Positions 2,148-57,768 are shown, counted from the first letter of the stretch. The stretch: DNA of 64,000 nt from Amoebidium appalachense (GCA_963693365.1 CAVNZM010000001.1:62001-126000); one strand, 5' to 3'. Notes: generated by a model from the letters alone, not told the origin. Numbers and translations: made by a program.

Positions 2148-3631
2148 GCCCTTCCACCTCTCGGGTGGGCCCCAACCTACCCACCACCCCGGAGGCAGCT
2201 GCCGCTATCACGGTGGATATTGCCAAAGAAGTCGCCCTCGGCCACCTGCGCGGCCCCCTCTCCCCGGCCCAATTCTTTGCCGAATTTCCGGTCCACCGTT
2301 CCTCTCCCATCGGCGCCGTTACCAAGAAAGGGAACCCCCCCAAGTACCGTCGAATCCACCACCTCTCCTGGCCCTGGGGTAGCAGTGTCAATGACAGCAT
2401 CACCTACCCCGACGAACTTCAGTACATTCGCGCCCGGGATGTCACCCAACTCATTCTCGACGCAGGCCCCGGCTGCTACATGGCCGTGGCAGATGTACAG
2501 GCTGCCTTCCGGCACATGCCCATCCGACCGGAAGACCACCACTTACTGGCATTCAAATGGCAAGGGCATTTTTACGTTGAAACCAGACTGCCCTTCGGCC
2601 TGAAATCTAGCCCAGCCATCTGGGAACGGATCGCGTCCACCCTACAGTGGCTGGCACACCAGCACGGTATTACCCTCATCCGCCACTACGTAGACGACTG
2701 GATTATAGTCGCCCCCACACAAGAGCAGTGCCAACGTCACCTATCCACCTTCCTGCAACTCTGCCGAGAGCTGCACATTGCCATCTCCGAAGACAAGATG
2801 CAGGGCCCGGCTACCCGTGTCGTCTTCATCGGTATCGAATTCGACTCCATCGCCATGGAGGCACGGATCCCGGCTTCCAAGCTCTCGGCCCTACTCGACC
2901 TCACTTCCCACCCAAAGCCCACCATCACCATTCGGGACCTCCAGTCCCTCCTCGGCAAACTCACCTGGTGTGCCCAGCTGGTTCCCCCCGGGAGGGCCTT
3001 CTCTCAGCGCCTATGGGCCCTTCTCCGGACCCACCCGCACCTTGCCGGCCACCACCACATACGACTGACTGCTGCCGCCCGGGCCGACATAGCCGAATGG
3101 CACCAGTTCCTCACATCATGGAATGGGGTGCACCTCATCACACCCCCCACATACACCACCCTGGCCACTGATGCTGCCGGATCGGTGGGTCTAGGAGGCC
3201 ACTGGCTCGACCAATGGTTCTTCATGCCCTGGTCCCCCTCCACCCAAGCCCTCTTTGCTCATGAGGGTAAACTCGGTTCTTCCGTCATCGAACTCCTGGC
3301 CATCGCAGCCGCCGTGGCCCTCTGGGCCCCCTCCTGGTCCACCCACCATGTCCGTATTTTATGCGACAACACGGGTGCTGTGTCTGACCTGCACTCCCGG
3401 TCTTCCCCCCACCCCGTGATGGCCAAACTTATTCGGTTCATCACCCGCATGGAAATGCAATACCAATTTACGTTACAGGCATCCTACCTACCAGGACCCC
3501 TCAACCATCTGGCCGATGCCATTTCTCGTAACCAACTTCCCCGGGCCCGACGACTCCGACCTTCCCTGCAACCGGAGCCCTGCACCTTCCCCTCCTGGGT
3601 CCACGAGTTCCTATCCCTTCCCTTGGGCTAA
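2148..3631 (+). CDS. pol: Reverse transcriptase / RNase H of DIRS/Ngaro type (5' end displaced by the LTR insertion)
   Basis: Motifs YRRIHHLS, DVQAAFRHMPI, LPFGLKSSP, YVDD; RNase H TDAAG, ELLAI, CDN, NHLADAISR. The 'M' in the ORF track is a GTG. Confidence 0.93.
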
Positions 3632-3656
3632 CCCCCCCCCCCCCCCCCCCCCCCAG

Positions 3657-4717
3657 ATCTCCCGTTCCGGAGCAACACTGGCAGATTGGCCCCCCACTTT
3701 GCTCCGGCCGAGCTGCTTCGAGCCACCACTACCCTGCAGGAATGCCAGGCCCTGAGTCTCAACCTCGACTCTCGGGCCTTTTACTCCCGGGTGCAAAAAG
3801 TGTTCATCGATTTCTGTGTGGCATCTCGGCTGCAATCCTCCTCCGGGTCCTCCCTCCCGGCCTCCCCACACACCGTGCAACTTTTTCTCGCCTGGTGTGC
3901 CCAACGAGGGGTACAGGCCTCTTCCTTAACCGGCTACAATTCGGCCATCACCAGGCTCCACCTCGACATGGGCCTCCCTGCTCCCTACCCCCACGACAAG
4001 TCCCTGGCCTGGTTCCTACGGGGGGTGGGCCGATGGCAGCTTTCTCACAACATCCGACCCCGCTCATCTACCAGGGAACCCCTCCTCCCCTCCCACCTCC
4101 GCCTACTCCAGGGCCAGTGCCCCACCACGGCCTCCTCGGCCAATCTCCGGCTATGGACGGCCCTCATCGTCGGTTTCTGTGGTCTCCTCCGTTCAGGGGA
4201 ATTTACCTCCAAAACCCTGACTTCTTTCGACCCGTCCCGTCACGCTAAACGGAAGGACGTGACCTTCAGCTACACCCCCACCGGTACTTTGTCCCATGCC
4301 ACCCTCCACCTGCCAACCTCTAAGACGGATGTACAGGCCCGAGGTGTCAACGTCACCCTAGCTGCCCTGCCCCTCACCCACTTCTCCCCAGCCCATCTCC
4401 TCCGGCAGTTCCTGGATACAACGTCCGGTCAACCCGACGACCCCCTCTTCAGTCTCGGTGGCATCCCCTACACCAAGAGTGCTTTCTCTGCCGATTTCCG
4501 TGCCCTCCTCTCCCGGGCAGGCCTCTCACCCTCCCGGTTTGCCGGACACAGCCTCCGCATCGGGGGGGCCACAGCACTGGCTGAGGCCGGGGTCGACGAC
4601 TCCCGGATCAAACAACTCGGCAGGTGGTCCTCCGACTGCTTCCTGATCTATACCCGACTTCGTCCGGCCTCCATTGCTGCCACCACCACACGTGTATTCG
4701 CCTCTCTTCTTAAGTGA
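3657..4717 (+). CDS. Tyrosine recombinase (phage-integrase family), intact catalytic set; probably a spliced second exon
   Basis: Catalytic R (GLLRSGE), K (SKTD), HxxR (GHSLRIGGAT), GRWSS...Y. No ATG near the start; preceded by CTAAC-(C)n-CAG ending at 3656. Confidence 0.92.
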
Positions 4718-4903
4718 AACCTTTGGAGCAAGCATACTGCTCTCGTGCCGTGGTTTACAACCATTGCAGGTTCACTTTCGTCCAAGGGGATGTCCCCCTA
4801 GAGGCAACACACGTCCCGGAGTAGTTTTCATAGAGGTTTTATTTGTGGAAATTATTGACATAAATATTTTTCTGGGTAAACACGTAGGATGGGTGTTCGA
4901 TAC

Positions 4904-7253
4904 AGGACATAAGGTGCTGTGAAAGTAGTTTTGCATGCATGCTTCGAATTTCTTGCTGTTTTCGAATACAGCATGCCCCATAGTTTAGCGCACAGGATGC
5001 ACAACATGCGCATGAATGTATGCTGGCATGCCTAAACACATTACGAACATATGCCTCATGTATGGCGGCCCTTCCTGGTGCCACGCCCTAACGAATTTGC
5101 ACTCTTGGTGCACAAAAGGCATGTAATAAAGTCGATGCAGAACTTTTGTTCATGCATGTGAATAACAAAGAAGGTGTTGGGTACGAATTTTAAGGTGATT
5201 GCCCGTCTGTGGCAATACTGTGTAACATACCAATTACACTGTCAAGCCTTGCACTAGCTGCCGGCACACCCCCACCAGAACAAAAGAATGTGGTATGGGC
5301 ACCGCTCCCTCACAACCCCATCATACAGTGTCAGTATTTTGGCTGGAAGCCTTTCAGTTTCGAATTACGAATACCCTCCTTCACTACTGAAGAAAGTGAC
5401 GTGGAAGACGAATACGAATACGAATGCAAGGTGTTGTTGACTAACACATCGGACCATCATGTGTACCTAGGCCCTGGTACGGAGGTGACCATGTTATTCC
5501 CTTGCAATATGATGATACTGTAACAATTTAGCACGTGCATACCCCACCAATGGGCACATGCGGGAGACAACCCCACAAGCTACCTTATTGGGCACCTCTG
5601 CTAAAACGAATATTCTTCTCACGAAGGAACAGAAGAATGCCACGAACACGAACCACACACTCACCAGGCAGCTACTTACATCTAATGTATGTAAGAAGTA
5701 GGGTGTGTGAACGGGGTAACTTCATGAACACCAACACGAAAGCAAGCACAGCACAAAGCAGTTCCACGAATACGAATGGTTTTGGTATTCCACATAACGA
5801 ACAGAACCTACAGTAGGGCCACCTACAAATGAAGCAGAGGATGGGGCACCATCCAGACCTGCACTGGAGGATATGAAAACACGAAGCGCGCTCACGAAGT
5901 TGCTTACAAAAGAAAGGGCGACTGTGACGACTTTTCTTTTTAGGCCAAGCCTCCAGAAGAATGTATTATGCCTGGAATCCCCCTGCTCAACGAAAATGGC
6001 TGGCAAATGGGATACGAAAACTGCTCACGAATGGAAGCATGTGTTTTCTGAAGAAGGTTTGCTTTGCCTACCCTCTTCTTATGAATTATGAACCGGGTTT
6101 TTACTGGTTCGAATTCTGACGGGCTGATATATTTCTTTATGCCGCCCAACGAAGAACACTTAGGGCATTTTTATTCATGTTATTCCCGGCTTCGATGATG
6201 CAGGGTTAAAGCTGAAAGGAAAGAAGTGCTCTTTGTTCATGAAAGAAGTGGCTTTTCCGGCCATGGTGACTCGCCTTACAGTCTTAAGGTAGAACCGGGA
6301 TAAGGAGCAGCGGCTAAGCCTTGAAGCTATCCACCACTACCTGAGCTACGAAGTGACCTAAGGCTTGAGTTATATTCATTATCGAATGTTTGGTATGATC
6401 ATTCATCCACACAACCAAATTACTTGCAATTGAAAACGAATCTGCGGGAGTATCCTAAAAAGGAAAAATTCCCAAAAAGGAAAATATTACTTCTACAGAA
6501 AAAGCCAAGCACAGAGACGAAGCGAACAATTCGCACGCACACTCTGCAACAATCTTCGCCACGAAAATGAAAGCACAGAAGAATGCTGCATGAATTTACG
6601 TTTTGGCAAACGAAGAAGTGCTCATAGACGTGCACAACTCTATTCAACCATCCTTGCTCTGTTCTGCCCAGCAGCTCGGCGCACAAGAATTCTCGCTGAA
6701 GGTTGTTTATCGCCTCTCAGCCTGGTGGTTTGCTTGTCTAACGACACCACCAGGCTCCCGACAAGGGGGGGAGTGTAAACAACTGTACACATGAACTGTC
6801 CATGTTTACTAAAGAATGTGATCTACTAGCACACGATTCGTGCTTTGTCATGAATATCACATAAATATTATGTCCGCACCAATAGGACTCACTCTGACCT
6901 AAGAATTGAACCATATATGGTTCTTCCGCTGCATACCACATAAACGAAGTGAACCAATAAGAGGTTTGCATAAATAGGACAAAGGTCTGACTGGCTCGGA
7001 CCGCACCAGAATCACGAATGGCATGTTGCCACCCGCGCTGGCCGCGGATGAACCAATCCTGGGCCTTGATCCGAAACCTGGGGGCTATATAAGAAAGCCG
7101 TCCCAGTACGGGGATCACATCAGTGAAGTCTGAGACAGACTGAGTCGGCCCATAGTAAAAGCAACCTGGCCGCGTGTGCCTTTCTACCCGTTCTCTGTCT
7201 TTATTTTGATTCAGTTGTACTCTGCCTTATCCTAACTAGTCCAACTGTTTACA
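4904..7253 (+). mobile_element. Gypsy-derived non-autonomous LTR element, copy 2 (5'-truncated); 3' LTR 6774-7253
   Basis: Matches 37600-39947; PPT plus 480-bp LTR; abuts the 3' end of the P-type transposase ORF. Confidence 0.9.
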
Positions 7254-8223
7254 CTGCCCCCGCGGCGGCCTCGCTCGCCGCCAAAGCGGCCGCCTGCACT
7301 GTTTTGGCTTTCCGGTTTGCTTTGTTGGGTGCTTTCTTCGCTTGTTCCTTGCGTTGACGCACATACGCGCTCAGGTGGCAGTTGGTTGCAACGGGTATCA
7401 GTCGTTCCACTAGTGCTCTCTTTTGCGTGCCGCACACCCCACACTCGTCCATAAGTGCCTTATCGGTATTGTACCTTTTGACTGCATGTTCGCTGAGTAG
7501 CACAGCCACCGTTCTATGGCTGCCCCCCGGAAGGTACGTGTTGACCAGTGGCTTTAGCAGTGCCTCCACCACACAGTAGACCAATGTGACAATGCTCACT
7601 GCTGGTGGTGAAGGGAAAGTCAGGCCCCCCCGATTGGCGGCGCGGATGAGTCGGTAGTGATCGTCTATGGCTCTTCCGGCCGTAGTGGTGGCTGTTTCGG
7701 TAGCTGTGGTGCTTGTTTCAGTGGGTGTGTTGGTGTTTTTGTTGGGTGTGGTGATTTCGAGATGTGCACGACATGTGTTGCAGGCTCCAACACCGCGCAC
7801 GTGATGCGCGTGCACACAGAACCCTGCCCGGTAGGTTAGCACCTCTGGCTTTCTGATGTCTTCGCTGATTTTATAGAGGTGGCCCCAGATGGTGTTGTTG
7901 TAGAGTGGGAGAATGGTCTCGATGGTGATCGTTTTGCGTTTGCTGTTGAGCGCTGTGTTCATGTTGTCGAACAGCTGTGTTACACTTGTGCCCGTCTGCA
8001 CTGCCAGCTTTGCCAGCTTCTGCACCCGTATCCTTTTGACGGCCTGGAGAGTCTGTTCATAGAGGTGAGTTTATTGTGTGATTTGTGTATATATAGATGG
8101 CACGTGGCTATAAAAGTTTAATATGACACACTATGGCGCGGGCGCGCAAGCAGTGTATCATAGCATATCTTCGTGTGTACACAAGCATGGTTTAGGTATA
8201 TCTGCATGGGGTTGTGTATGTAT

Positions 8224-12279: not shown

Positions 12280-15930
<3,651 letters not shown>

Positions 15931-16073
15931 GGTTTTATTTGTGGAAATTATTGACATAAATATTTTTCTGGGTAAACACGTAGGATGGGTGTTCGATACC
16001 AACATAACCATGTAGGCTTCATTTTTCGTGTTTTAGCAGTTAGCGGTTGGCTGCCCGCACACGGGCACCAATT

Positions 16074-16193
16074 AGCCAATCAAAACATCAGATACCACAG
16101 ATCACTAGACCGAGTTATGATTGGCTCGGATCAGATTTCACATATCACTAGATCGATTTTGATTGGCTCAGATCGGTAGGCTTAGGTATATAA
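16074..16193 (+). promoter_or_regulatory. Putative Pol II promoter inside the Ngaro A repeat (CCAAT/ATTGG boxes plus TATATAA at 16187)
   Basis: GCCAATC, two GATTGGCT and TATATAAG about 120 bp upstream of the gag ATG. The ATTGG boxes and TATA recur in the other full-length A copies. Confidence 0.55.
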
Positions 16194-16310
16194 GCACGAC
16201 AGTTTTTAGCAGATCAGCAAGCTACAAACACATCTTCTGTGTTTAGCATCCACAGCCTTACAGCTATATATTCCTTTTCACTCTCCCTATCTTTCCCTAC
16301 GCCGGTCAGC

Positions 16311-17481
16311 ATGCCGCCGAAAAAGCGCCAGGCCGCAGCCGCCGCCCCTGCCGCGGCACCTAAGTGCCTGACCCGCAGCGACCTCCGCCACAGGCTGACC
16401 AACGCTCCCGCGGACACTGACGCGCCTCCAGCGGCCCATACCACCACGGACCCGGACCGGCCGGCTACTCTCCCCTCCACTCCTGAAGTCCCCCCTCAGG
16501 CCCCGCCGTCCCCGCAGATGACTTCTCAAGACGCCGTCCTTGCCGCCCTCACCGCCATCAGCACCCAGATGGCTGGCGTCCTGGCTGCTCTCACCAACCG
16601 CGACGCTCCCGCGCTCCCCGCCGCGCCCTCCACACCCGGGGAGGTTTCCCCGGGGCTGCATCTCGGCCCTGACCTAGACCTACCTGCCCTGCCCGCGCCC
16701 CCCATCACAGGTGAGAACACTGGCGACATTCAGCCGGGCACACTCCCGCTTCCCCCCGCGGATGTGCTGGCAGATTTGCGCGCCAATCGTTTCGTCGACC
16801 TGTATAAGTTCACCCCCGCCGCCCTCCTGGCCCCATCCAAGAAAGGTCAGCATCTGCGCATGGCCGACGACGACAGCATCGAGACTTTTCGCCAAGACAA
16901 ACCCGTTCCCCTGCTTTCACTCGTCATTTGGATCCAAGCTTGGACCCATTACATGGCCGCCAAGCACCACCTCGGCCTCCCCACGGACAGAGACGTACTT
17001 TGGACTCAGCACATCACTCGCCTCAGCACCCGATACCCGTGGGCCCAGATCCACAACTATGACGTATACGCCCGCACCGTTGCCCATCAGCAGGGTCGGG
17101 TTCCGATCGAATGTCCCAACCTGCTTGCCCAACTCCACCAGGATCTCATCCTGCCACCCACTCTGCTCATCCCGGACGCATGTCAGCGCTGTGGCTTCCC
17201 CGACCACCCTAGCGCGGCCTGCCCCATGTACCCCAAGCCCGGATGTGGTCTTGACGGCTTTAAGCCGCCCCACAAGCCCGACGGGGGTCAAACCCCTAAC
17301 CGCCCTGGCCCCGCAACCCGGCCCGGCAAAACCGGCCCGACCCGTGGATCTACCCGCGACGCACTGCAGGAATTTCCACATTAACGGTCGGTCCTGCGCT
17401 AAGCAGCCCTGCCCCTTCTCCCACGTGTGCCCGCTCTGCTCTGGCACACCCCCCCGCAAAGACTGCAAGCACAATGCCTAG
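16311..17481 (+). CDS. gag: Ngaro Gag-like ORF1 (one frameshift ~17312)
   Basis: ATG CCG CCG AAA AAG (MPPKKR). CQRCGFPDHPSAAC knuckle and CRNFH..C...C...H / CPLC...C fingers. The homologous copy at 46074-47065 shows the reading frame across the break. Confidence 0.85.
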
Positions 17482-17873
17482 TCTACGCGCACACCCACAC
17501 ACACAGCTAGAACATAGGGGTTAGGAGCTAGGACACACGAGTACAGGGAAACGGAGCTCGGGAGCACGGGCCAATAGGGCTGAGTACAAATTTCGCAGGC
17601 CAACTACGGCGCCCGCGCGCGTCAAGAATAAATGTCCCTACACAAAGACGTTTATTCTGGCCACTGCACATAATTTTACTCCCCCCCCCCCCCCATCCCA
17701 CGAGCCTCCCCCCCCCCCCCTTACACTCACCTAGCACTCCCTCCCCCCCCCCCTTCTTCTACCTCTGTGTCCGCCCACACCCCCGCGTGCTCGGGCACAT
17801 TCCCCTGCACAGGGCCCCGCTGCCCTCCCTGCATCACCTGGGCCCAGCTGCTCTACTCTGACCCCCGGGGCCC

Positions 17874-17925
<52 letters not shown>

Positions 17926-17987
17926 CCTGCCGGGATCTCCCCAAGGGTGCCCCACCCTTGCTAACCACCCCTTCCCCCGAGGCTCAG

Positions 17988-19612
17988 ACCCGGAGGCCCG
18001 CCCGCTGCCCCAGCACCACATTGACACCTCCCGCCTCCGGGAACTGCTGGCCTCCTACCCAGACCAATCATTCGCCGCACAACTCCTCCACGATGTCGAA
18101 TTCGGCGTCGACATCGGCTATCGCGGCCCCTCCACCTCTCGGGTGGGCCCCAACCTACCCACCACCCCAGAGGCAGCTGCCGCTATCACGGCGGATATTG
18201 CCAAAGAAGTCGCCCTCGGCCACCTGCGCGGCCCCCTCCCCCCGGCCCAATTCTTTGACGAATTTCCGGTCCACCGCTCCTCCCCCATCGGCGCCGTTAC
18301 CAAGAAAGGGAACCCCCCCAAGTACCGTCGAATCCACCACCTCTCCTGGCCCCGGGGTAGCAGTGTCAATGACAGCATCACCTACCCCGACGAACTTCAG
18401 TACATTCGCGCCCGGGATGTCACCCAGCTCATTCTCGACGCAGGCCCCGGCTGCTACATGGCCGTGGCAGATGTGCAGGCTGCCTTCCGGCACATGCCCA
18501 TCCGACCAGAAGACCACCACTTAATGGCATTCAAATGGCAGGGGCATTTTTACGTTGAAACCAGACTGCCCTTCGGCCTGAAATCTAGCCCAGCCATCTG
18601 GGAACGGATCGCGTCCACCCTACAGTGGCTGGCACACCAGCACGGTATTACCCTCATCCGCCACTACGTAGACGACTGGATTATAGTCGCCCCCACACAA
18701 GAGCAGTGCCAACGTCACCTATCCACCTTCCTGCAACTCTGCCGAGAGCTGCACCAATTTGCCATCTCCGAAGACAAGATGCAGGGCCCGGCTACCCGTG
18801 TCGTCTTCATCGGTATCGAATTCGACTCCATCGCCATGGAGGCACGAATCCCGGCTTCCAAGCTCTCGGACCTACTCGACCTCACTTCCCACCCAAAGCC
18901 CACCATCACCATTCGGGACCTCCAGTCCCTCCTCGGCAAACTCACCTGGTGTGCCCAGCTGGTTCCCCCCGGGAGGGCCTTCTCCCAGCGCCTATGGGCC
19001 CTTCTCCGGACCCACCCACACCTTGCCGGCCACCACCACATACGACTGACTGCTGCCGCCCGGGCCGACATAGCCGAATGGCACCAGTTCCTCACATCAT
19101 GGAATGGGGTGCACCTCATCACACCCCCCACATACACCACCCTGGCCACCGATGCTGCCGGATCGGTGGGTCTAGGAGGCCACTGGCTCGACCAATGGTT
19201 CTTCATGCCCTGGTCCCCCTCCACCCAAGCCCTCTATGCTCATGAGGGTAAACTCGGTTCTTCCGTCATCGAACTCCTGGCCATCGCAGCCGCCGTGGCC
19301 CTCTGGGCCCCCTCCTGGTCCACCCACCATGTCCGTATTTTATGCGACAACACGGGTGCTGTGTCTGACCTGCACTCCCGGTCTTCCCCCCACCCCGTGA
19401 TGGCCAAACTTATTCGGTTCATCACCCGCATGGAAATGCAATACCAATTTACGTTACAGGCATCCTACCTACCAGGACCCCTCAACCATCTGGCCGATGC
19501 CATTTCTCGTAACCAACTTCCCCGGGCCCGACGACTCCGACCTTCCCTGCAACCGGAGCCCTGCCCCTTCCCCTCCTGGGTCCACGAGTTCCTATCCCTT
19601 CCCTTGGGCTAA
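17988..19612 (+). CDS. pol: Ngaro RT/RNase H, uninterrupted from the putative splice acceptor
   Basis: Same motifs as copy 1 (YVDD, TDAAG, CDN, ADAISR). The frame is open from the CAG at 17985-17987. Confidence 0.92.
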
Positions 19613-19640
19613 CACCCCCCCCCCCCCCCCCCCCCCCCAG

Positions 19641-20450
19641 ATTTCCCGTTCCGGAGCAACACTGGCAGATTGGCCCCCCACTTTGCTCCGGCCGAGCTGC
19701 GTCGAGCCACCACTACCCTGCAGGAATGCCAGGCCCTGAGTCTCAACCTCGACTCTCGGGCCTTTTACTCCCGGGGGCAAAAAGTGTTCATCGATTTCTG
19801 TGTGGCATCTCGGCTGCAATCCTTCTCCGGGTCCTCCCTCCCGGCCTCCCCACACACCGTGCAACTTTTTCTCGCCTGGTGTGCCCAACGAGGGGTACAG
19901 GCCTCTTCCTTAACCGGCTACAATTCGGCCATCACCAGACTCCACCTCGACATGGGCCTCCCTGCTCCCTACCCCCACGACAAGTCTCTGGCCTGGTTCC
20001 TACGGGGGGTGGGCAGATGGCAGCTTTCTCACAACATCCGACCCCGTTCATCCACCAGGGAACCCCTCCTGCCCTCCCACCTCAGCCTACTCCATGGCCA
20101 GTGCCCCACCAAGGCCTCCTCGGCCAATCTCCGGCTATGGACGGCCCTCATCGTCGGTTTCTGTGGTCTCCTCCGTTCAGGGGAATTTACCTCCAAGACC
20201 CTGACTTCTTTCGACCCGTCCCGTCACGTTAAACGGAAGGACGTGACCTTCAGCTACACCCCCACCGGTACTTTGTCGGCCACAGCCTCCGCATCGGGGG
20301 GGCCACAGCACTGGCTGAGGCCGGGGTCGACGACTCCCGGATCAAACAACTCGGCAGGTGGTCCTCCGACTGCTTCCTGATCTATACCCGACTTCGTCCG
20401 GCCTCCATTGCTGCCACCACCACACGTGTATTCGCCTCTCTTCTTAAGTG
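19641..20450 (+). pseudogene. Ngaro tyrosine recombinase with ~240-bp frameshifting deletion
   Basis: ACTTTGTC is joined to GGCCACAGCCTCCG, removing the SKTD region that is present in copy 1. Confidence 0.85.
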
Positions 20451-21137
20451 AAACCTTTGGAGCAAGCATACTGCTCTCGTGCCGTTGTTTACAACCATTG
20501 CAGGTTCACTTTCGTCCAAGGGGATGTCCCCCTAGAGGCAACACACGTCCCCGGGAGTAGTTTTCATAGAGGTTTTATTTGTGGAAATTATTGACATAAA
20601 TATTTTTCTGGGTAAACACGTAGGATGGGTGTTCGATACCAACATAACCATGTAGGCTTCATTTCGTGTTTTAGCAGTTAGCGGTTGGCTGCCCGCACAC
20701 GGGCACCTATTAGCCAATCAAAACATCAGATACCACAGATCACTAGACCGAGTTATGATTGGCTCGGATCAGATTTCACATATCACTAGATCGATTTTGA
20801 TTGGCTCAGATCGGTAGGCTTAGGTATATAAGCACGACAGTTTTTAGCAGATCAGCAAGCTACAAACACATCTTCTGTGTTTAGCATCCACAGCCTTACA
20901 GCTATATATTCCTTTTCACCCACCCACCTACACCCACACTCAACCCCCATTGATCCACACATACGTGCTGTTTTTTCACGGGGCGAAGACTTCCCCCGTT
21001 TTTTGGGCACATGGACCTCACGGATCAATAAATTGATGACTGGGGGCTTGCCGTGGTTTACAACCATTGCAGGTTCACTTTCGTCCAAGGGGATGTCCCC
21101 CTAGAGGCAACACACGTCCCGGAGTAGTTTTCATAGA

Positions 21138-21490: not shown

Positions 21491-21867
21491 ATATTTCCTA
21501 ATAGTCGACACTCTCAAAGTGAAGACACTTTGCAATAAACCGAATTCCATATATATCTATTGTCCAATCACAACACACATATATTAATAGACTGGAATGC
21601 ACAACACAATCTACAGATGTACTCGCTCGCGACTATTGGCGAGCCATCCTTTTGAGAACAAAACTAAGCCATTTTGAAATAAAGGAAAGACAACGAGTGA
21701 GGCTAGCCAATCACGCTACCTCTCAGATAAACAGAGGAGAGCAAACAGAAATAAAAACACAATAAGTTCTTATCAGGCAAGAGAGCCAGGTGTGCACAGA
21801 TCTACAGATATCTGTGCTCACAGAAACAAGGGAGTGAGAGATACGGGGGGGGGGGGGGGGGGGGGGG

Positions 21868-22017: not shown

Positions 22018-25000
22018 CCGACTCAGTCTGTCTCAGACTTTACTGATGTGATACCCGTACCGGGACGGCTTTCTTATATAGCCCCCAGGTTTCGGATCAA
22101 GGCCCAGGATTGGTTCATCCGCGGCCAGCGCGGGTGGCAACATGCCATTCGTGATTCTGGTGCGGTCCGAGCCAGTCAGACCTTCGTTCTATTTATGCAA
22201 ACGTCTTATTGGTTCACTTCGTTTATGTGGTATGCAGCGGGGTGCGGACATAATATTTATGTGATATTCGTGGCAAAGCACGAATCGTGTGCTAGTACAT
22301 CACATTCTTTAGTAAACATGTACAGTTCATGTGTACAGTTTTCACTCCCCCCCCTTGTCGGGAGCCTGGTGGTGTCGTTAGACAAGCAAACCACCAGGCT
22401 GAGAGGCGATAAACAACCTTCAGCGAGAATTCTTGTGCGCCGAGCTGCGGGGCAGAACAGAGCAAGGACAGTGGCATAGACTTGTGCAAGTCTATGAGAA
22501 CTTCATGTTCCAAAAACACAACATAGTCATGCAGCATTCTTCTGAGTTTTTGTTTTCCGTGGCGAAGATTGTTGCAGAGTGTGATTGCGAATTAATCGCT
22601 TCGTCGCTGTGCTTGGCATTTTCTGTAGAAGTTTGTACTTTCCTTTTTATGAAATTTTTTCCTTTTTAGGATACTCCCGCAGATTCGTTTTCAATTGCGA
22701 GTAATTTAGTTGTGTGGATGAATGATCATACCAAACATTCGAAAATGAATAAAACTCAAGCCTTAGGTCACTTCGTAGCTCAGGTAGTGCTGGATAGCTT
22801 CTTAGCCGCTGCCCCTTATGGTTCTACCTTAATATTATAAGGCGAGTCACCATGGCCAGAAAAGCCACTTCTTTCACGAACAAAGAGCACTTCTTAAAGT
22901 TTCCTTTCAGCTTTAACCCTGCATCATCGGAGCTGGGAAAAACATGAATAAAAATGCCCTAAGTGTTCTTCGTTGGGTGACATAAAGAAATATATCAGCC
23001 CGTCAGAACCAGTAAAAACCCGGTTCATAATTCATAAGAAGAGGGTAGGCAAAGCAAACCTTCTTCAAAAAACACATGCTTCCATTCGTGAGCAGTTTTC
23101 GTATCCCATGAGCCAGCGATTTTTGTTGAGCAGGGGGATTCCAGGCATAATACATTCTTCTGGAGGCTTGGCCTCAAAAGAAAAGTCATCACAGTCGCCC
23201 TTTCTTTTGTAAGCAACTTCGTGAGTGCGCTTCGTGTTTTCATATCCTCCAATGCAGGTCTGGATGGTGCCCCATCCTCTGCTTCATTTGTAGGTGGCCC
23301 TACTGTTGGTTCTGTTCGTTGTGTGGAATACCAAAACCATTTGTGTTCGTGGAACTGCTTTGTGCTGTGCTTTCTTTCGTGTTGGTGTTCATGAATTTAC
23401 CCCGCTCACACACCCTACTTCTCACATACATCAGATGTAAGTAGCTGCCTGGTGAGCGTGTGGTACGTGTTCGTTGGACCCTTCCATTACTTCCTAAGAA
23501 GAGCATTTCGTTTTAGCAGAGGTACCCAATAAGGCAGCTTGTGGGGTTGTCTCCCGCCTGTGCCCATTGGTGGGGTGTGTACGTGCTAAAGGGTTACAGT
23601 GTCATCGGATTTTGCAAGGGAATAACATGGTCACCTCCGTACCAGCGCCTAGGTACACGTGATGGTCTGATGTGTTAGTCAACAACACCTTGCATTCGTA
23701 TTCGTCCTCAATCACACTTTCTTCCCTACTGGAGAGGTGGGATTCATTATTCGAAATTCGAGCTAAACTGGTGACACTGCATGCTGGTGTTGTGCGGGAC
23801 GGTGCCCTTGCAACATTATTTATTCTTTTATTCTGGTGGGGGTGTGCCGGCAGCAATTTTATTTTGCATGCCGGTATTCAAGGCTTTACCGCATAGTTCG
23901 TATGTTATAGTATTTATACAGTATTGCCACACACTGGCAGTTACCTGTAAATTCGTACTCCACAGCTTCGTTTGTTTCACATGCACGAACAAAAGTTCTG
24001 CATCGACTTTATTACATGCCTTCTGTGCACCAAGAGTGCAAGTTCGTTGGGGCATGGCACCAGGAAGGGCCATACATGAGGCATACGTTCGTAACGTGCT
24101 TAGCCTAAGGCATGCAGGCATAAATTCGTGAGCATTTGTGCATCCTGTGCGCTAAACTATGGGCATGTGGTATTCGACAAGAGCAAGGGATTCGAAGCAT
24201 GCATGCAACACTACTTTCATAAGATCTTAGGTCCTACATGCTATAGCAACAGCGACGGTGCATTCATGCTGTGAGTGGCCGTGCATATAGTTGCAAGTGT
24301 GGACGTGCTCGCGGTGGCATGGACACGATGACTGTGTGCAATAGCGTAATGCACTTAAGGGCAACAGTTTTCTTTCTTCGTAACTGTCATCTTCACTTGA
24401 TTCTCAGCAAGACTTAGAAGTTGAGTTTTGTATTTATTTATTAGTTGTTGTAGTTTGTTTCCTTTTCCTTTCTTCATTTCTTTCTTTCTTTCCCGTTTCC
24501 GTGTACACGACATCTTAGATCTGTGTACGTATCGACATACTTAGCTCGCGCACACGTATTGTCGTTTGCGTCAAAATCTATATATGTCATCCAATCATAT
24601 CTCGTTTGTATTTTCCCAAATATAGTAACTTACATTCCTTTCTCATTCCTTTCCCACGACGTAGCATTGTGCTATGTTCTTCAACTATTAGGAATAATTA
24701 TATTTAGACGTGTTATGATAAGAACATGTATAAATGTATGTTATGAATTAATAGTAATATAAGTGGTTTCATTTTGTTAAATGTTTCCGTGCTTTTATTA
24801 GAAGTTTCTTTCATTAGAGGATTGAGTTTTATATTCTATGTGTCGACAGACATTTTAATCGATATATTTTACACTCATAGTTTTCGTTCTTTTGATTGGT
24901 TTATCGTTTCACATTCCCAAGTATAAAAGGGACCTCATCTTGAAATAAATCGTAAGCAGTCGTATTCATTTCCTATGGTTCCAGAAATCGTTCCACCTCT

Positions 25001-26117
25001 CCGGTTGTGCTTCTCCCGTGTGTCTCTGTGTTGTGTATTACATAACATCCATCTGTGCTCTCTGCTTCTCCGTTTACCCACACAAAATAACAGTAACATA
25101 GAGGGGGCTGTGTGCATTGCAACCCACGCAGTGTTGTGCAGTCGTTCTTTTCATTTTCGTATTTCCATTTCATTTTGCTTTCGTTTTTCGTTTTTCGTCG
25201 TATGATAACTTCGTTACTTCGTTTTGTTTTCGTGAATGCATTCATTTCGTATTTCCTCTATGCATTCGTTTGTCGTTGATTCGTTATTTCGTTGTGTATT
25301 CGTGATGGTTCGTTTTTCGTTAGTTCATTGCTTCGTTAGTAATTCTTTATTCGTTTGTTCGTGTATTCGTTGTTTCGTTGTGTTTTCGTTTTTCTTCACA
25401 TTTTTTATGTGTCGTAGCAAAAGAAGATTTTCATGCTTTCGATTCTTTCCGTGTTCTTCGAGGTGGGCTGGCCACTTCAAACTTTTCGGTGTATATTCTA
25501 AGCCGGAGAAGGAAAGATGTGCCTATCATCGTGGTAAAAAGGATTGTGATCGGCCATGGGAGATTCTTGAGCTGATTAAAAGATCTGAGATTCTTGAACT
25601 GATTGAAAGATGTGAGATTCGAGGGATGCGAGATTCTTGAACTGCGCGGTCGCCAATGTAAACAGTTGGACTAGTTAGGATAAGGCAGAGTACAACTGAA
25701 TCAAAATAAAGACAGAGAACGGGTAGAAAGGCACACGCGGCCAGGTTGCTTTTACTATGGGCCGACTCAGTCTGTCTCAGACTTCACTGATGTGATCCCC
25801 GTACTGGGACGGCTTTCTTATATACCCCCTAGGTTTCAGATCAAAGTCCAGGATTGGTTCATCCGCGGCCAGCGCGGGTGGCAACATGCCATTCGTGATT
25901 CTGGTGCGGTCCGAGCCAGTCAGATCTTCGTCCTATTTATGCAAGCATCTTATTGGTTCACTTCGTTTATGTGGTATGCAGCGGTAGAATCATATATGGT
26001 TCACTTCTTATGTAAGATTGATTCCTATTGGTGCGGACATAATATTTATGTGATATTCGTGACAAAGCACGAATCGTGTGCTAGTACATCACATTCTTTA
26101 GTAAACATGTACAGTTC
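22018..26117 (-). mobile_element. Gypsy-derived non-autonomous LTR element, copy 3 (older); LTRs 26117-25657 and 22344-22018
   Basis: PBS TGGCGACCGCG and PPT are present. The two LTRs have diverged and both are interrupted. Carries a copia solo LTR. Confidence 0.88.
24385..25092 (+). mobile_element. Copia solo LTR (family B, 708 bp)
   Basis: TGTCATC...AATAACA; 5-bp TSD GTAAC; matches 40093-40801. Confidence 0.93.
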
Positions 26118-26731: not shown

Positions 26732-27890
26732 TGTCATCTTCACTTGATTCTCAGCAAGACTTAGAAGTTGAGTTTTGTATTTATTTATTAGTTGTTGTAG
26801 TTTGTTTCCTTTTCCTTTCTTCATTTCTTTCTTTCTTTTCCGTTTCCGTGTACACGACATCTTAGATCTGTGTACGTATCGACATACTTAGCTCGCGCAC
26901 ACGTATTGTCGTTTGTGTCAAAATCTATATATGTCATCCAATCATATCTCGTTTGTATTTTCCCAAATATAGTAACTTACATTCCTTTCTCATTCCTTTC
27001 CCACGACGTAGCATTGTGCTATGTTCTCCAACTATTAGGAATAATTATATTTAGACGTGTTATGATAAGAACATGTATAAATGTATGTTATGAATTAATA
27101 GTTATATAAGTGGTTTCATTTTGTTAAATGTTTCCGTGCTTTTATTAGAAGTTTCTTTCATTAGAGGATTGAGTTTTATATTCTATGTGTCGACAGACAT
27201 TTTAATCGATATATTTTACACTCATAGTTTTCGTTCTTTTGATTGGTTTATCGTTTCACATTCCCAAGTATAAAAGGGACCTCATCTTGAAATAAATCGT
27301 AAGCAGTCGTATTCATCTCCTATGGTTCCAGAAATCGTTCCACCTCTCCGGTTGTGTTTTTCCCGTGTGTCTCTGTGTTGTGTATATCATAACACCCATC
27401 TGTGCTCTCTGCTTCTCCGTTTACCCACACAAAATAACAGGTTTACGGCCCCTTTGCACGCTAACACACAATCTCGTTACAACCGCGAAATTCCTCAGTC
27501 TAACTGCTTCAATCATGACTGACAAACCGTCGTATATCAACCTTCCAATATGGAATCCGTCCGAGAAACGAGACGAGAAACGTCTTAATTATTTCGAGTG
27601 GGAGCCACTCATTCACCGGTTCATTAGAACAACCATTGCCGAGAAATTCGTTGACGCTATCAAGAGGCCACAGTGGGTTGACGGCGCTGAAGCCAACCAG
27701 TGGCTAGGCTACACCACCAAGGACTCCTACAAGAAAGCTTCCGACGTCCTCGACCAGATCCTCAACCAGTCCGTCCACCCGACCGAGCTCTACGACTCCG
27801 GCCGGATGCAAGACGGTGTCCACGGTGGTGAAGTCTTCCACAACCTACGTATGGCGTATGTAGCAGAGAAGGAGGCCCGAGTCACTCAGA
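26732..27890 (+). mobile_element. Copia 5' fragment: LTR 26732-27439, PBS-like GGTTTACGGCCCC, truncated gag from 27514
   Basis: Matches 40093-41250; homology ends at ~27890. Confidence 0.9.
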
Positions 27891-36392: not shown

Positions 36393-39300
36393 TGTAAACA
36401 ACTGTACACATGAACTGTACATGTTTACTAAAGAATGTGATCTACTAGCACACGATTCGTGCTTTGTCATGAATATCACATAAATATTATGTCCGCACCA
36501 ATAGGACTCACTCTGACCTAAGAATTGAACCATATATGGTTCTTCCGCTGCATACCACATAAACGAAGTGAACCAATAAGAGGTTTGCATAAATAGGACG
36601 AAGGTCTGACTGGCTCGGACCGCACCAGAATCACGAATGGCATGTTGCCACCCGCGCTGGCCGCGGATGAACCAATCCTGGGCCTTGATCCGAAACCTGG
36701 GGGCTATATAACAAAGCCGTCCCAGTACGGGGATCACATCAGTGAAGTCTGAGACAGACTGAGTCGGCCCATAGTAAAAGCAACCTGGCCGCGTGTGCCT
36801 TTCTACCCGTTCTCTGTCTTTATTTTGATTCAGTTGTACTCTGCCTTATCCTAACTAGTCCAACTGTTTACATTGGCGACCACGCAGTTCAAGAATCTCG
36901 AATCCTTCGAATCTCACATCTTTCAATCAGTTCAAGAATCTCACATCTTTCAATCAGCTCAAGAATCTCCCATGGCCGATCACAATCCTTATTACCCCGA
37001 TGATAGGCACATCTTTCCTTGTCCGGCTTAGAATATATACACCGACAAGTTTGAAGTGGCCAGCCCACCTACACGGAAAGAATTGAAAGCATGTAAAACT
37101 TCTTTTGCTACGACACATCAAAAATGTGAAGAAAAACGAATACACAACGAAACAACGAATACACGAACAAACGAATAAAGAATTGCTAACGAAGCAATGA
37201 ACCAACGAAAAACGAACCATCACGAATACGCAATGAAATAAAGAATTAACGACAAACGATTGCATAGAGGAAATACGAAATGAATGCAACACGAAAACAA
37301 AACGAAGTAACGAAGTTATCAAACGACAAAAAACGAAAAACGAAAGCAAAATGAAATGGAAATACGAAAATGAAAGAACGAATGCACAACACTGCTTGGG
37401 TTGCAATGCACACAGCCCCCTCTATGTTACGAAGAAAAGAAAACCGTTGCCCTTGCGTGCATTGCGCTATTGCACACTGTCATCGTGTCCATGCCACCGC
37501 ATGCACGTCCACACTCGCAAGCCAGATCATCATGATGCACGGCCACTTTCAGCACGAATGCATTTAAAGAAGAAGATAGTCGCTGTTCCTATAGCATTGA
37601 GGACATAGGGTGCTGTGAAAGTAGTTTTGCATGCATGATTCGAATTTCTTGCTGTTTTCGAATACAGCATGCCCCATAGTTTAGCGCACAGGATGCACAA
37701 CATGCGCATGAATGTATGCTGGCATGCCTAAACACATTACGAACATATGCCTCATGTATGGCGGCCCTTCCTGGTGCCACGCCCTAACGAATTTGCACTC
37801 TTGGTGCACAAAAGGCATGTAATAAAGTCGATGCAGAACTTTTGTTCATGCATGTGAAAAACAAAGAAGGTGTTGGGTACGAATTTTAAGGTGAATGCCC
37901 GTCTGTGGCAATACGGTGTAACATACCAATTACACTGTCAAGCCTTGCACTAGCTGCCGGCACACCCCCACCAGAACAAAAGAATGTGGTATGGGCACCG
38001 CTCCCTCACAACCCCATCATACAGTGTCAGTATTTTGGCTGGAAGCCTTTCAGTTTCGAATTACGAATACCCTCCTTCACTACTGAAGAAAGTGACGTGG
38101 AAGACGAATACGAATACGAATGCAAGGTGTTGTTGACTAACACATCGGACCATCATGTGTACCTAGGCCCTGGTACGGAGGTGACCATGTTATTCCCTTG
38201 CAATATGATGACACTGTAACAATTTAGCACGTGCATACCCCACCAATGGGCACATGCGGGAGACAACCCCACAAGCTGCCTTATTGGGCACCTCTGCTAA
38301 AACGAATATTCTTCTCACGAAGGAACAGAAGAATGCCACGAACACGAACCACACACTCACCAGGCAGCTACTTACATCTAATGTATGTAAGAAGTAGGGT
38401 GTGTGAATGGGGTAACTTCATGAACACCAACACGAAAGAAAGCACAGCACAAAGCAGTTCCACGAATACGAATGGTTTTGGTATTCCACACAACGAACAG
38501 AACCTACAGTAGGGCCACCTACAAATGAAGCAGAGGATGGGGCACCATCCAGACCTGCACTGGAGGATATGAAGATACGAAGCGCGCTCACGAAGTTGCT
38601 TACAAAAGAAAGGGCGACTGCGACGACTTTTCTTTTTAGGCCAAGCCTCCAGAAGAATGTATTATGCCTGGAATCCCCCTGCTCAACGAAAATGGCTGGC
38701 AAATGGGATACGAAAACTGCTCACGAATGGAAGCATGTGTTTTCTGAAGGAGGCTTGCTTTGCCTACCCTCTTCTTATGAATTATGAACCGGGCTTTTAC
38801 TGGTTCTGACGGGTGATATATTTCTTTATGTCGCCCAACGAAGAACACTTGGGCATTTTTATTCTGTTTTTCCCAGCTCCGATGATGCAGGGTTAAAGCT
38901 GAAAGGAAAGAAGTGCTCTTTGTTCATGAAAGAAGTGGCTTTTCCGGCCATGGTGACTCGCCTTACAGTCTTAAGGTAGAACCGGGATAAGGAGCAGCGG
39001 CTAAGCCTTGAAGCTATCCACCACTACCTGAGCTACGAAGTGACCTAAGGCTCGAGTTATATTCATTATCGAATGTTTGGTATGATCATTCATCCACACA
39101 ACCAAATTACTCGCAATTGAAAACGAATCTGCGGGAGTATCCTAAAAAGGAAAAATTCCCAAAAAGGAAAATACTACTTCTACAGAAAAGCCAAGCACAG
39201 AGACGAAGGCTTAGCGAATTATTCGCACGCACACTCTGCAACAATCTTTGCCACGAAAATGAAATCACAGAAGAATGCTGCATGAATTTACGTTTTGGCA

Positions 39301-39947
39301 AATGAAGAAGTGCTCATAGACGTGCACAACTCTATTCCACCGTCCTTGCTCTGTTCTGTCCAGCAGCTCGGCACACACAAGAATTCTCGCTGAAGGTTGT
39401 TTATCGCCTCTCAGCCTGGTGGTTTGCTTGTCTAACGACACCACCAGGCTCCCGACAAGGGGGGGAGTGTAAACAACTGTACACATGAACTGTACATGTT
39501 TACTAAAGAATGTGATCTACTAGCACACGATTCGTGCTTTGTCATGAATATCACATAAATATTATGTCCGCACCAATAGGACTCACTCTGACCTAAGAAT
39601 TGAACCATATATGGTTCTTCCGCTGCATACCACATAAACGAAGTGAACCAATAAGAGGTTTGCATAAATAGGACGAAGGTCTGACTGGCTCGGACCGCAC
39701 CAGAATCACGAATGGCATGTTGCCACCCGCGCTGGCCGCGGATGAACCAATCCTGGGCCTTGATCCGAAACCTGGGGGCTATATAACAAAGCCGTCCCAG
39801 TACGGGGATCACATCAGTGAAGTCTGAGACAGACTGAGTCGGCCCATAGTAAAAGCAACCTGGCCGCGTGTGCCTTTCTACCCGTTCTCTGTCTTTATTT
39901 TGATTCAGTTGTACTCTGCCTTATCCTAACTAGTCCAACTGTTTACA
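36393..39947 (+). mobile_element. Complete non-autonomous gypsy-derived LTR element (3.55 kb); LTRs 36393-36872 and 39468-39947
   Basis: TSD CGCCC; LTR termini TGTAAACA/TGTTTACA; PBS TGGCGACCACG (complementary to a tRNA-Arg-type 3' end); [14 protein letters not shown]. No long ORF; RT remnant ~38810-38960. Confidence 0.95.
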
Positions 39948-40092
39948 CGCCCCCTGCCGCGGCACCTAAGCGCCTGACCCGCAGCGACCTCCGCCACAGG
40001 CTGACCAACGCTCCCGCGGGCCCTGACGCGCATCCGGAGGCCCATACCACCACGGACCCTCCGGCTACTCTCCCCTCTACTCCTGAAGTCCC

Positions 40093-43000
40093 TGTCATCT
40101 TCACTTGATTCTCAGCAAGACTTAGAAGTTGAGTTTTGTATTTATTTATTAGTTGTTGTAGTTTGTTTCCTTTTCCTTTCTTCATTTCTTTCTTTCATTC
40201 CCGTTTCCGTGTACACGACATCTTAGATCTGTGTACGTATCGACATACTTAGCTCGCGCACACGTATTGTCGTTTGCGTCAAAATCTATATATGTCATCC
40301 AATCATATCTCGTTTGTATTTTCCCAAATATAGTAACTTACATTCCTTTCTCATTCCTTTCCCACGACGTAGCATTGTGCTATGTTCTTCAACTATTTAG
40401 GAATAATTATATTTAGACGTGTTATGATAAGAACATGTATAAATGTATGTTATGAATTAATAGTTATATAAGTGGTTTCATTTTGTTAAATGTTTCCGTG
40501 CTTTTATTAGAAGTTTCTTTCATTAGAGGATTGAGTTTTATATTCTATGTGTCGACAGACATTTTAATCGATATATTTTACACTCATAGTGTTCGTTCTT
40601 TTGATTGGTTTATCGTTTCACATTCCCAAGTATAAAAGGGACCTCATCTTGAAATAAATCGTAAGCAGTCGTATTCATTTCCTATGGTTCCAGAAATCGT
40701 TCCACCTCTCCGGTTGTGCTTCTCCCGTGTGTCTCTGTGTTGTGTATTACATAACACCCATCTGTGCTCTCTGCTTCTCCGTTTACCCATACAAAATAAC
40801 AGGTTTACGGCCCCTTTGCACGCTAACACACAATCTCGTTACAACCGCGAAATCTCTCAGTCTTACTGCTTCAATCATGACTGATAAACCGTCGTATATC
40901 AACCTTCCAATATGGAATCCGTCCGAGAAACGAGACGAGAAACGTCTTAATTATTTCGAGTGGGAACCACTCATTCACCGGTTCATTAGAACAACCATTG
41001 CCGAGAAATTCGTTGACGCTATCAAGAGGCCACAGTGGGTTGACGGCGCTGAAGCCAACCAGTGGCTAGGCTACGCCACCAAGGACTCCTACAAGAAAGC
41101 TTCCGACGTCCTCGACCAGATCCTCAACCAGTCCGTCCACCCGACCGAGCTCTACGACTCCGGCCGGATGCAAGACGGTGTCCACGGTGGTGAAGTCTTC
41201 CACAACCTACGTATGGCGTATGTAGCAGAGAAGGAGGCCCGAGTCACCCAGATCCAAGTCACCTTCGAGGAGCTTGAACTACGAGACTACCCCAACGTCA
41301 CAGCATACCTCACCCGTCTCCAACGTCTGGCTACGACACTTGCCTGCCTCGACGAGCCCGTCCAGCACAAGGATGTCGTACGTAAGTTCTTCCTTCACCT
41401 CAGGAAGAACACGGCCCTGGTCTGCTCCGACATTGACCGTCTCTGCTCCGACTACTGGATGAACAACAAGGCCTACCCGTCCTTCAACCAGCTCATCAGT
41501 GACATCCGAGGAGCTGAAATCCGTGCCGGCCTCATCGACGCAGGCACAGGTGCAACCGTCAACAACCGTCCCCTCCGTGCACTCCAGAGCAGAGTGCTTC
41601 CCCCCGGTGACCTCCGTAACCGTCAATGCCAAACAACGTGGCATCATCAACATGACACTGCACTACAACGGCAAACCAACACAGTGCAGCATCAATGCTT
41701 ACTACGTACCCGAGGCACCGTCTTTCCTCGTGTCTACCTCCATGGCCTCAGCTGCCGGCCTCCTAGGTCATTGTGACGATACAGACAACCACCCGTCGTT
41801 CCTCTACAGCCGTAATGGTGACATCATTACAGATCTCACCCCCCTCGACGGTCTCTACTACATCACTGACTATGTGATTGAGACTCCTAAACACCCGGGG
41901 GTCCAAGCCTACACAGCAAGGACTCAACCACCCGCCGACCTCACCCTTTGGCACAACCGTCTCGGCCACCGTGCCCTCTCCACCGTCACCAGGATGGCCA
42001 AAGATGAGCTTGTCATCGGCATGCCCCCCTCCCTCAAGTCACCCGACAACAGTGACTGCTTCGGCTGCATGTCTGGCAAGACCACCAAGGCCCCCTTTCC
42101 CGGCACCCGTTCCAAGTTCACCATTCCCGGTGCTAAGTGGCACCTGGACTTCTTCGAATCTCCCTGTACTTCCTACGGAGGCTACAAGGTTGCTCTGGTG
42201 TGTGTTTGTGATGCCACCGGTTACACCACCGTGTTCCCCCTCTACAACCGTGGTGAAGCCCTCAGCCACATTCAGTCTCTCGTTGAAACCATTGAACGTC
42301 AGACACCTGAGATCGTCACCCATCTTCGGTTTGACTCCGGCTCTGAGTTCACCTCCAAGGACACCGAGGCCTACTGCAAGCAGAAAGGCATCATCATGGA
42401 GTTTGCCCCCGTCGACACACCACAACACAACGGTGTTGTTGAACGGAAGATGAGAGAACTGCAAGAGACAGTCCGTTGCTTCCTCCATGCCGACAAGGAC
42501 CAACCTCTCTCTCCCAAGTTGTGGGTTGCTGCTCTCAAGCATGCAGGCTACATCATCAACGTCACACCGTCATCTGCTGCCAACGGCAACACTCCCTTCG
42601 AGGCCTTTCACGGCTTCAAACCCGACGTCTCCCAGCTCCACGTGTTCGGCTCCCCTGCCTATGTGCATGTTCCCCGGTCAAAGAGGAACAAGCTGGCATC
42701 AACCGTCAGAGTCGGCACCTACGTCGGCTGGGACCTGCCCTCCAAGGCACACAAGATCCTTGCCCGTGCCAGCAACCAAATCAAGATCTGCCGTGATGTG
42801 ATCTTCGACGAGTCAAAATTCACGAGCAGCACCAATCAGGTCCCCGTTCCCCCCAAACCCGATCTGCCGACATTGGACCCCCCCTCCGACGACGACGATG
42901 AAACTCCGTCTGTGGTCATCTCCCAACCGTCCTGGCACAACCAACCAGCCCCGGTTGAACCCGTGTCTCCCCCGAGCCCCCCCCCCCACTGGCCAACAAC

Positions 43001-44843
43001 CCTTGCTGCCGGCCCCCCCCCGTTGCTGTACATCAACCCGGCTACATGACTCCGGTTCGTCCTGGGTCCCCCACCTTCCACTCGGCCTCGAGCAGCCCTG
43101 TGGACACCGATGCCCCCCTCACCACCGGTCCTATTCCTGGCTTCCATGCCCCTATCCCGGCCTCCACCACCTACCCGGCCACCACCCCCCTCAAGGACCC
43201 CCCCAAGCCCAACCTTCGTCGGTCTACACGTCTCACCAAGACTCCAACGGCACTGGTCAGCATCATGGCACCGACCATCAACATTGACCAGCTCCCCAAG
43301 GGCATTCAAAAGCTTTGCAACGGTCCCAACGGTGATGCCGTCATAGCTGCCCTCACCTCCGAGTACCAAGCCTTCATCACCAAGGATGTCTTCACCATTG
43401 TTGATCCTCCCCCTAATGCCAACATCATCAAGTTCAAGTGGATTGTGACTGAGAAAGTCCTCAACTCAGCCGGTGACACCAAGATCAAAGCTCGTGGTGT
43501 TACAAAGGGCTTCACTCAAGTCTACGGTGTTGACTACGGTGACACCTCTTCCCCCGTGGTGATGTCCTCCTCCGTCCGTGCCCTCCTTGCCATCGGTGTG
43601 GACGGCAACCATGAGATTCATCAACTCGACGTCTCAACTGCCTTCCTCAACAGTCCTCTTCAAGAAGACATCTACATTGAGCCACCACCTGGCTTCATCA
43701 CCCCCGGCAACGAACACAAGGTCTGGAAACTTAAGAAGGCGCTCTACGGCCTCAAGCAAGCATCACTGGCCTGGTATGACTACTTCGACAAGGTCCTCCT
43801 TGCCCACGGTCTCGAACGTCTCCGTTCAGATCCATGTGTCTACATCAAGACCTTCCCCAACGGTGACATCATCCTCACTGGCAACTATGTGGACGACGTC
43901 ATCATCATCTGCACGGCCAACTCTTCCCACACCAAGGATCTAGTAGACCACATTATGAAGTCAGCTCTCTGCAAGGTTGACCTTCCCGACATCTTCCTTG
44001 GCACCCAGCTCATCCACACCCCCGGTCACCTCAAGCTGCTTCAACAATCCTACATCAACGACATCGTCAGAGACTTCAACCTCAACGATGCTCACCCCAA
44101 GGCTACTCCCATTCCCGTCGGCACCGTCATCACCATCAACGAGAACGACTCACCACCCATCAAGGTTCCCTACCGTGAACTACTCGGCCGTCTTTTGTGG
44201 GTTGCTCGTTGTTCCCGGCCCGACATCTCCTTTGCCATCGGCTACCTCGGTAGATTCAGTGCCAACCCCACCAAACTTGCATGGGAATGTCTACTCCGTG
44301 TAGTTCGGTACCTCATCGGCACTTCCAACCTCGGCCTTCACTACGACAAGTCTGCATCCGATGACAACACCCCCTTGCTGGAGTGTTATTCTGATGCTGA
44401 CTTTGCCAACTGCCCCAACACCCGTCGTTCAACCACCGGATACGTCATCTTCTTCAAGGGGATCCCCATCACATGGTATTCAAAGCTGCAGTCCATCACG
44501 GCAACATCCACCACCGAGGCTGAGCTTCTTGCCATCAATGCTGCTGTTCAAAACGTCATCTGGCATCGTGATCTCCTCCGTGAACTCGGCTACCCGATGA
44601 CCGACCCCACCCCCGTCTACTGTGACAACCAGTCCACCATTGCCCTCCTGCACACCAACAGCATCAAGCACCGGACCAAACACATTGCAGTCCGGTACCA
44701 CAACACGAAGGACTACATCAAGAGTGGGGATGTGGTCGTCACCTACGTGTCCAGCAAAGACAACGTGGCTGACATCTTCACCAAGCCCCTGCCCGGGCCC
44801 CCCCACGAGCATCACCGTGATTCACTCAGTCTTCATGACTGAG

Positions 44844-47457: not shown

Positions 47458-47488
<31 letters not shown>

Positions 47489-54903: not shown

Positions 54904-55004
<101 letters not shown>

Positions 55005-55108
55005 GGAAAACAAGTTTTCTTGTTTTTTTTTCTTTTTTCTTCTCTCTCCTTTTTTTTTTGCGCGGGGGTTGTTGTTGTGGTGGTTGTAGTGGGGTGTGTG
55101 GGTGTGTG

Positions 55109-55145
<37 letters not shown>

Positions 55146-57734: not shown

Positions 57735-57768
<34 letters not shown>

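Follow-up and report, generated by a model that had tools for sequence, protein, structure and literature searches.

Tyrosine-recombinase (YR) retrotransposons of the Ngaro group, within the order DIRS, are described in the covered sections of three papers as carrying gag, reverse transcriptase/RNase H (RT/RH) and YR in that order, with split direct repeats and no methyltransferase (PMC3783388, PMC13465315, PMC4157794). Dictyostelium DIRS-1, as far as the covered parts of its accounts go, is a YR retrotransposon with three ORFs (PMC7192593, PMC5633606). In YR retrotransposons the downstream ORFs often lack an ATG, and the literature covered leaves their translation unexplained. Splicing is used by other retroelements: in the covered portion of work on foamy virus, a single 5' splice site is shared by pol and another gene downstream (PMC3705302), and in plant Ty1/Copia elements such as EVD, alternative splicing and premature termination together set the ratio of structural to catalytic protein, according to the part covered of PMC5580714. 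No description of YR or Pol being expressed by splicing in a Ngaro or DIRS element was found in the portions of the literature covered (including PMC6681497, PMC5941688, PMC9341512 and bioRxiv 10.64898/2026.05.21.726589), with key older papers such as Goodwin and Poulter 2004 lying outside that coverage. A prior description of spliced expression may exist. The abstract of the 2004 paper reportedly mentions spliceosomal introns in some YR retrotransposons.

The window analysed here, a 64-kb stretch of Amoebidium appalachense DNA, contains a 5.2-kb YR retrotransposon (15930-21137, plus strand) between split direct repeats in the order A1...B1 A2 B2. A1 (15930-16287, +) is 98.6% identical to 20570-20925, and the 3' repeats (20480-21137, +) comprise B1 (20480-20570), A2 (20570-20925), a spacer with an AATAAA at 21027, and B2 (21049-21137). 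A TATATAA at 16187 inside A1 is a putative promoter element. In contigs of runs X1, X8 and X2 the site is empty, with 15929 joined directly to 21137. Flanking the element, and outside it, is a 265-nt inverted repeat pair (15643-15907 and 21491-21755) that has very high depth in run X1 and is joined in the empty-site contigs; it probably represents a non-autonomous DNA transposon that was the insertion target of the element.

The element encodes a gag-like ORF, an RT (Pfam RVT_1) and a tyrosine recombinase (Phage_integrase in intact copies). Pfam scans found no DDE integrase family in the element ORFs scanned and no methyltransferase family in five other-frame ORFs, and pol ends just past the RNase H-like region. 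Three features of its sequence place the element in the Ngaro type, namely an RT/RNase H accompanied by a tyrosine recombinase and no DDE integrase, the split direct repeats on either side of the coding region, and the absence of a methyltransferase domain; the relatives in the RT/RH tree are all unnamed, with no named Ngaro references among them. A PAT-like element, which would combine split direct repeats with a methyltransferase, was ruled out by the absence of the latter, and a DIRS1-like element, with inverted terminal repeats, an internal complementary region and a methyltransferase, by the direct orientation of the repeats. This copy is not intact: its gag is frameshifted and its YR carries a deletion.

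Three further copies lie in the window. One (2148-4903, +) retains the 3' part of pol and an intact YR with the same acceptor, its 5' part being cut off by another repeat. A decayed copy at 46 kb (46073-52451, +) keeps the splice donor and pol acceptor described below and has two insertions; one of these, LTR-like, lies in the YR poly-C tract, and the YR acceptor AG is lost. The segment inside that tract (49192-49949) is 758 nt long, is bounded by TG...CA and resembles a solo LTR. The last copy (12842-15647, -) has no gag; it was considered as a spliced retrocopy and rejected, because its A repeat is joined to mid-pol by microhomology, as in a microhomology deletion, and not at splice sites. 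No spliced retrocopy was found within the 64-kb window, where the remaining fragments end at insertions. Other repeats are frequent. A 710-nt repeat occurs five times (24385-25093, 26732-27440, 40093-40802, 45366-46074 and 50230-50961), several times inside Ngaro copies, and a 2.3-kb family (1-2151, 4904-7269, 22018-24384 and 37426-39963), also inserted into Ngaro copies, gave no Pfam match in the one ORF tested. A Ty1/Copia-type element (40658-44842, +) has gag-pre-integrase, rve, SH3 and RVT_2 domains spread across several frames, and a long tandem array of a CA-rich unit of ~60 nt on the minus strand (61500-63720) yields spurious 800-aa ORFs.

The gag ORF (16311-17481, +) has Cys/His knuckles at its C-terminus, matches the zinc-knuckle gag-like protein P0179 weakly, and begins at the only ATG within 16200-16313. 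Its frameshift is due to an extra base near 17309 that is absent from the 46-kb copy and from runs X1 and X2. The first 133 codons plus one base (16311-16710, +) would form a shared 5' coding exon opened by this sole ATG and closed, 400 nt further on, by a predicted phase-1 splice donor, CAG/GTGAGA (16708-16716, +; cut at 16710/16711). This donor, and its repetition at 46296 in the 46-kb copy, had been proposed in a first-pass annotation of the same DNA and both were confirmed. GTRAG occurs once on the sense strand of the element, at the donor (16711), as against 11 times on the antisense strand and 2.97 times in approximate shuffles.

Two ORFs downstream of gag are each preceded by predicted acceptor signals. 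Pol (17982-19612, +; Pfam RVT_1, E=6e-18; 73 homologues) comprises an RT and a region that we take, from its motifs, to be RNase H, and has no methyltransferase. Ahead of it are a predicted branch point, GCTAAC, and tandem in-frame acceptors (17960-17987, +; CTAAC at 17961, AGs at 17980-81 and 17986-87, phase 1), which are kept at 47523-47550 in the 46-kb copy. The YR ORF (19641-20451, +) follows a second predicted GCTAAC branch point, a poly-C run and a CAG (19608-19640, +); as previously claimed, the CTAAC at 19609 overlaps the TAA stop of pol and the CAG (19638-40) is in phase 1. The same signals are present at 3628-3656 and 14605-14576(-), and all three acceptors, two for pol and one for YR, are phase 1 and open. 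The observation that neither ORF has an upstream ATG also held, the first in-frame ATGs (18458 and 19952) lying inside RT and YR, respectively. GCTAAC is found twice on the sense strand of the element, both times at an ORF start; as it is also found twice on the antisense strand (0.76 in shuffles), it is the position of these sites that matters and not their count. Similarly, runs of at least 20 C or G occur 35 times in the window, such that the poly-C run alone is no evidence for an acceptor. Poly-C is a weak pyrimidine tract.

From these signals the following mode of expression can be proposed. A single transcript from A1 would serve, unspliced, as genome and as Gag mRNA. The AATAAA at 17627, one of only two on the sense strand of the element, is a possible polyadenylation signal, and an alternative end there would give a short gag mRNA. 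Splicing from the phase-1 donor at 16710/16711 to the acceptor at 19640/19641, just past the pol stop, would produce Gag133-YR (486 aa in intact copies), and splicing from the same donor to the second acceptor, at 17981/17987, would produce Gag133-RT/RH. The length of about 486 aa given earlier for the first product applies to the intact copy, in which YR (3656-4717) matches Pfam Phage_integrase (E=4e-8); in the copy at 15930 a deletion of ~245 nt relative to that YR, at 20277/20278, puts the HxxR region out of frame and shortens the product to 379 aa. For the second product, computed splicing gives 674 aa, the length first suggested, or 676 aa, depending on the acceptor used. Splice choice would set the amounts of the two fusions, whose common 133-residue leader, with its putative nuclear localisation signal, could bring the enzymes into particles. 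Spliced RNAs, with both ends retained, could also return to the genome as non-autonomous copies.

Of 152 metagenome matches, the best 80 (30-41% identity) were used to assess conservation of these signals; clustering at 65% pol identity puts them in 30 families. The family of the window brings the number to 31, and 26 of these have a testable region before YR; kin share traits, and hence the family counts given here are not independent events. With acceptors scored by generic textbook weights, the AG ranked highest before YR is phase 1 and open in 18/26 families (23/26 in a 130-nt window). Control windows inside ORFs are themselves rich in phase 1 (8/24 to 23/29), and acceptor phase was therefore rejected as a stand-alone test. 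A CTRAY 12-40 nt before the best AG is found ahead of YR in 14 of the 26 families, compared with 19 of 266 control windows. Two layouts are seen, with the predicted YR acceptor either in an RNase H motif of pol or in the spacer after the pol stop (L022:3861; L030, region before YR). In ten families it is written into the motif ADxLSRxQ. Of the 11 families with Gln at this position, 10 encode it by CAG (background 0.48), as do 20/20 distinct sequences of the ten; the eleventh has CAA, and its acceptor is a separate one located past the pol stop. Upstream of the Gln site the codons read xCT GAY in the ten families (19/20 sequences), as opposed to 20/63 other AD pairs. This motif contains a TGA that terminates the YR frame, so the codon choice is not accounted for by overlap coding. 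The ten families are 31-61% identical, do not form one clade and interleave on the tree with the after-pol-stop families (two short families left out), which suggests that the YR acceptor has relocated repeatedly with its phase kept.

A comparable pattern is seen at the donor. Among 21 aligned gag sequences, 13 from eight families carry [GR]E[FY], with Gly or Arg as first residue, at the start of the gag core, and in every one of them (13/13 sequences, 8/8 families) the codons are xGT GAG T in phase 1. By comparison, GGT GAG encodes the same residues in 1/10 families in YR and at 6/16 other GE pairs. The other eight gags include that of the window, whose donor precedes the gag core by ~17 codons, the donors of relatives being at the core itself; in 7/8 of these gags the best-scoring donor is phase 1. 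A check of relatives, suggested with the first-pass annotation, thus upheld the gag donor and the YR acceptor and failed to extend to the pol acceptor (see below), and one copy in the window has lost its YR AG. Searches of viral contigs found no relatives, and genome contigs yielded one unspliced relative (L081) and one weak match. The former (L081:1-4356) is a eukaryotic-type Ngaro element in a bacterial metagenome-assembled genome, where it is probably host contamination.

Proteins joining the two predicted exons were sought using the gag N-terminal region of L003 as query. Three of the 32 proteins returned (P0150, P0164 and P0171) run from Gag-N into a full or near-full YR and not into the gag core. 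All three switch exactly at the predicted donor, resume at the predicted acceptor and carry a hybrid His codon (C from the donor, AT from the acceptor) at a position that is Asp in unspliced YR frames. The product predicted from L001-L022 shares 93-94% identity with P0150. The family of these fusions is only ~36% identical in pol to that of the window, and P0175, a named relative in their group, is from the coral Oculina patagonica. The fusions derive from ENA contigs of 1.2-3.0 Mb, and P0150 is extended upstream and frameshifted in its tail, as would be the case for a simple ORF call on a decayed copy in a genome. It is likely that these proteins represent spliced RNAs that were retrotransposed, although they could instead be intron-aware gene models. 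A gag search of 50% representatives returned two weak matches and no fusion. In a separate case, an NCBI sponge gene model (P0071) joins pol to YR via a predicted intron that apparently ends near the YR start. Gag-N/YR splicing is well supported as a prediction, given that conservation of its donor and acceptor signals extends to synonymous positions and that exact fusion proteins exist, and the junction 16710^19641 is very probably real.

Runs X1 and X8 are identified as RNA by a RanGAP1-like host gene (52819-61000, -) with long introns, five splice joints of which are found in these runs. The branch points of the element had been likened to those of other introns in the window; a CTRAY lies at most 45 nt from the acceptor in three of the five RNA-supported joints, whereas GCTAAC does so in none. 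Contigs from X1 span gag, continue unspliced through the donor and reach part of the spacer. No splice joint of the element appears in X1 or X8 contigs, which cover neither acceptor, and assembled contigs drop rare forms.

This last result fits splicing as well as an absence of splicing, in which YR would be made as a Pol-YR polyprotein, through either a frameshift or readthrough at the stop codon of pol, pol itself would use non-AUG initiation, and the splice-like motifs would be by-products of coding. YR is indeed in frame with pol in two of the three copies (2148 and 15930), and in relatives the motifs overlap conserved protein motifs. The frame relation differs, however, in the third copy and in the close relative represented by P0001 and P0074 (53% and 55% identical), both from a 4326-nt contig and taken as one and the same. 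There, a single overlap is possible, and it again places the pol stop within CTRAC; next come Pro/Leu-rich codons and a Pro-Asp pair that would accommodate a phase-1 AG. YR and pol are in different frames there, a point against readthrough. In this relative YR may also be initiated at an ATG, since one lies in frame ahead of it. Coding by-products also do not account for synonymous positions that are fixed at the splice-like motifs and not at the same residues elsewhere, or for the precise Gag-N/YR fusions, and expression without any splicing is therefore quite improbable.

The position of pol requires a separate judgment. Were it translated from the ATG at 17474, which overlaps the end of gag and is in the pol frame in this copy, the gag-pol spacer (17482-17981, +) would be decayed coding sequence. 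In-frame stops follow at 17522 and 17732, each of the three frames of the spacer contains stops in the two copies compared (15930 and 46-kb), and this ATG is altered in an X1 contig. The two copies differ by 10 indels over the 500 nt of spacer, of which six are not multiples of 3 and several fall in C runs, whereas the coding sequence has 8 in 2626 nt (gag, 2 in 995; pol, 6 in 1631). The non-coding character first ascribed to the spacer is thereby confirmed, and a start at 17474 is largely refuted, to the point of being barely credible. A stronger competitor has only YR spliced to the gag leader, pol being expressed otherwise, for example from an internal promoter or by internal ribosome entry and non-AUG initiation close to 17990. 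A general pol acceptor was not found in relatives (best AG phase 1 in 10/25, CTRAY in 2/25), in-frame ATGs lie upstream of pol in 12 of 15 elements examined, with gag overlapped in many, and precise Gag-N/Pol fusions number 0/32 among the matches to the gag N-terminal query. Before the pol of the window, moreover, the generic score ranks a different AG, in phase 0, at the top. Splicing to pol therefore draws on the sequence of the window's family, for which it is plausible: its closed spacer and lack of a pol ATG before 18458 speak against YR-only splicing, as does the GCTAAC before two in-frame AGs at the boundary of homology, which begins at most about 12 codons 3' of the predicted acceptors, and its retention in the 46-kb copy. 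The pol splicing first proposed thus stands on its signals, phase and second-copy conservation and does not generalize to relatives. We consider YR-only splicing unlikely and the pol junction (16710^17982/17988) likely to be real; that both junctions are real and share the gag donor has a probability of roughly two in three.

A broader reading joins these points and seems to us about evenly balanced. Splicing of a gag exon to YR would be ancestral and group-wide, though undescribed in Ngaro; the motifs G-E-F/Y and ADxLSRxQ would double as donor and acceptor; spliced RNAs would have been retrotransposed as Gag-N/YR copies; and the family of the window would have extended the use of the donor to Pol, such that one ATG gives three proteins. 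If this is true, the real Ngaro recombinase has a Gag-derived N-terminus, which matters for studies of its expression and target choice; ORF1 has been linked to integration preference in the covered part of PMC8547959. Two conserved protein motifs would be explained as splice signals, and intron-less non-autonomous copies would be expected in genomes. The exact junctions named here are open to test by RT-PCR or long reads.

In gene order, A1...B1 A2 B2 repeats and absence of a methyltransferase, the element is like the Ngaro group as presented in the sections covered. Those sections (PMC3783388, PMC13465315, PMC4157794) describe the Ngaro YR as in frame, or as frameshifted and overlapping, and give no splicing route to YR or Pol, whereas in the window gag and pol lie 500 nt apart. 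DIRS-1, from the parts of its accounts covered, is similar as a YR retrotransposon with three ORFs and differs in its inverted repeats, methyltransferase and overlapping ORF2 and ORF3, with no native splicing described there. In the covered part of the EVD account, the spliced short RNA yields Gag and the unspliced RNA the enzymes; the element of the window would do the reverse. The likeness to foamy virus, within the portion covered, is the single 5' splice site for pol and another downstream gene. Foamy Pol, however, has its own start codon and no Gag sequence, while the products predicted here would share 133 Gag residues and the second of them would be a recombinase.
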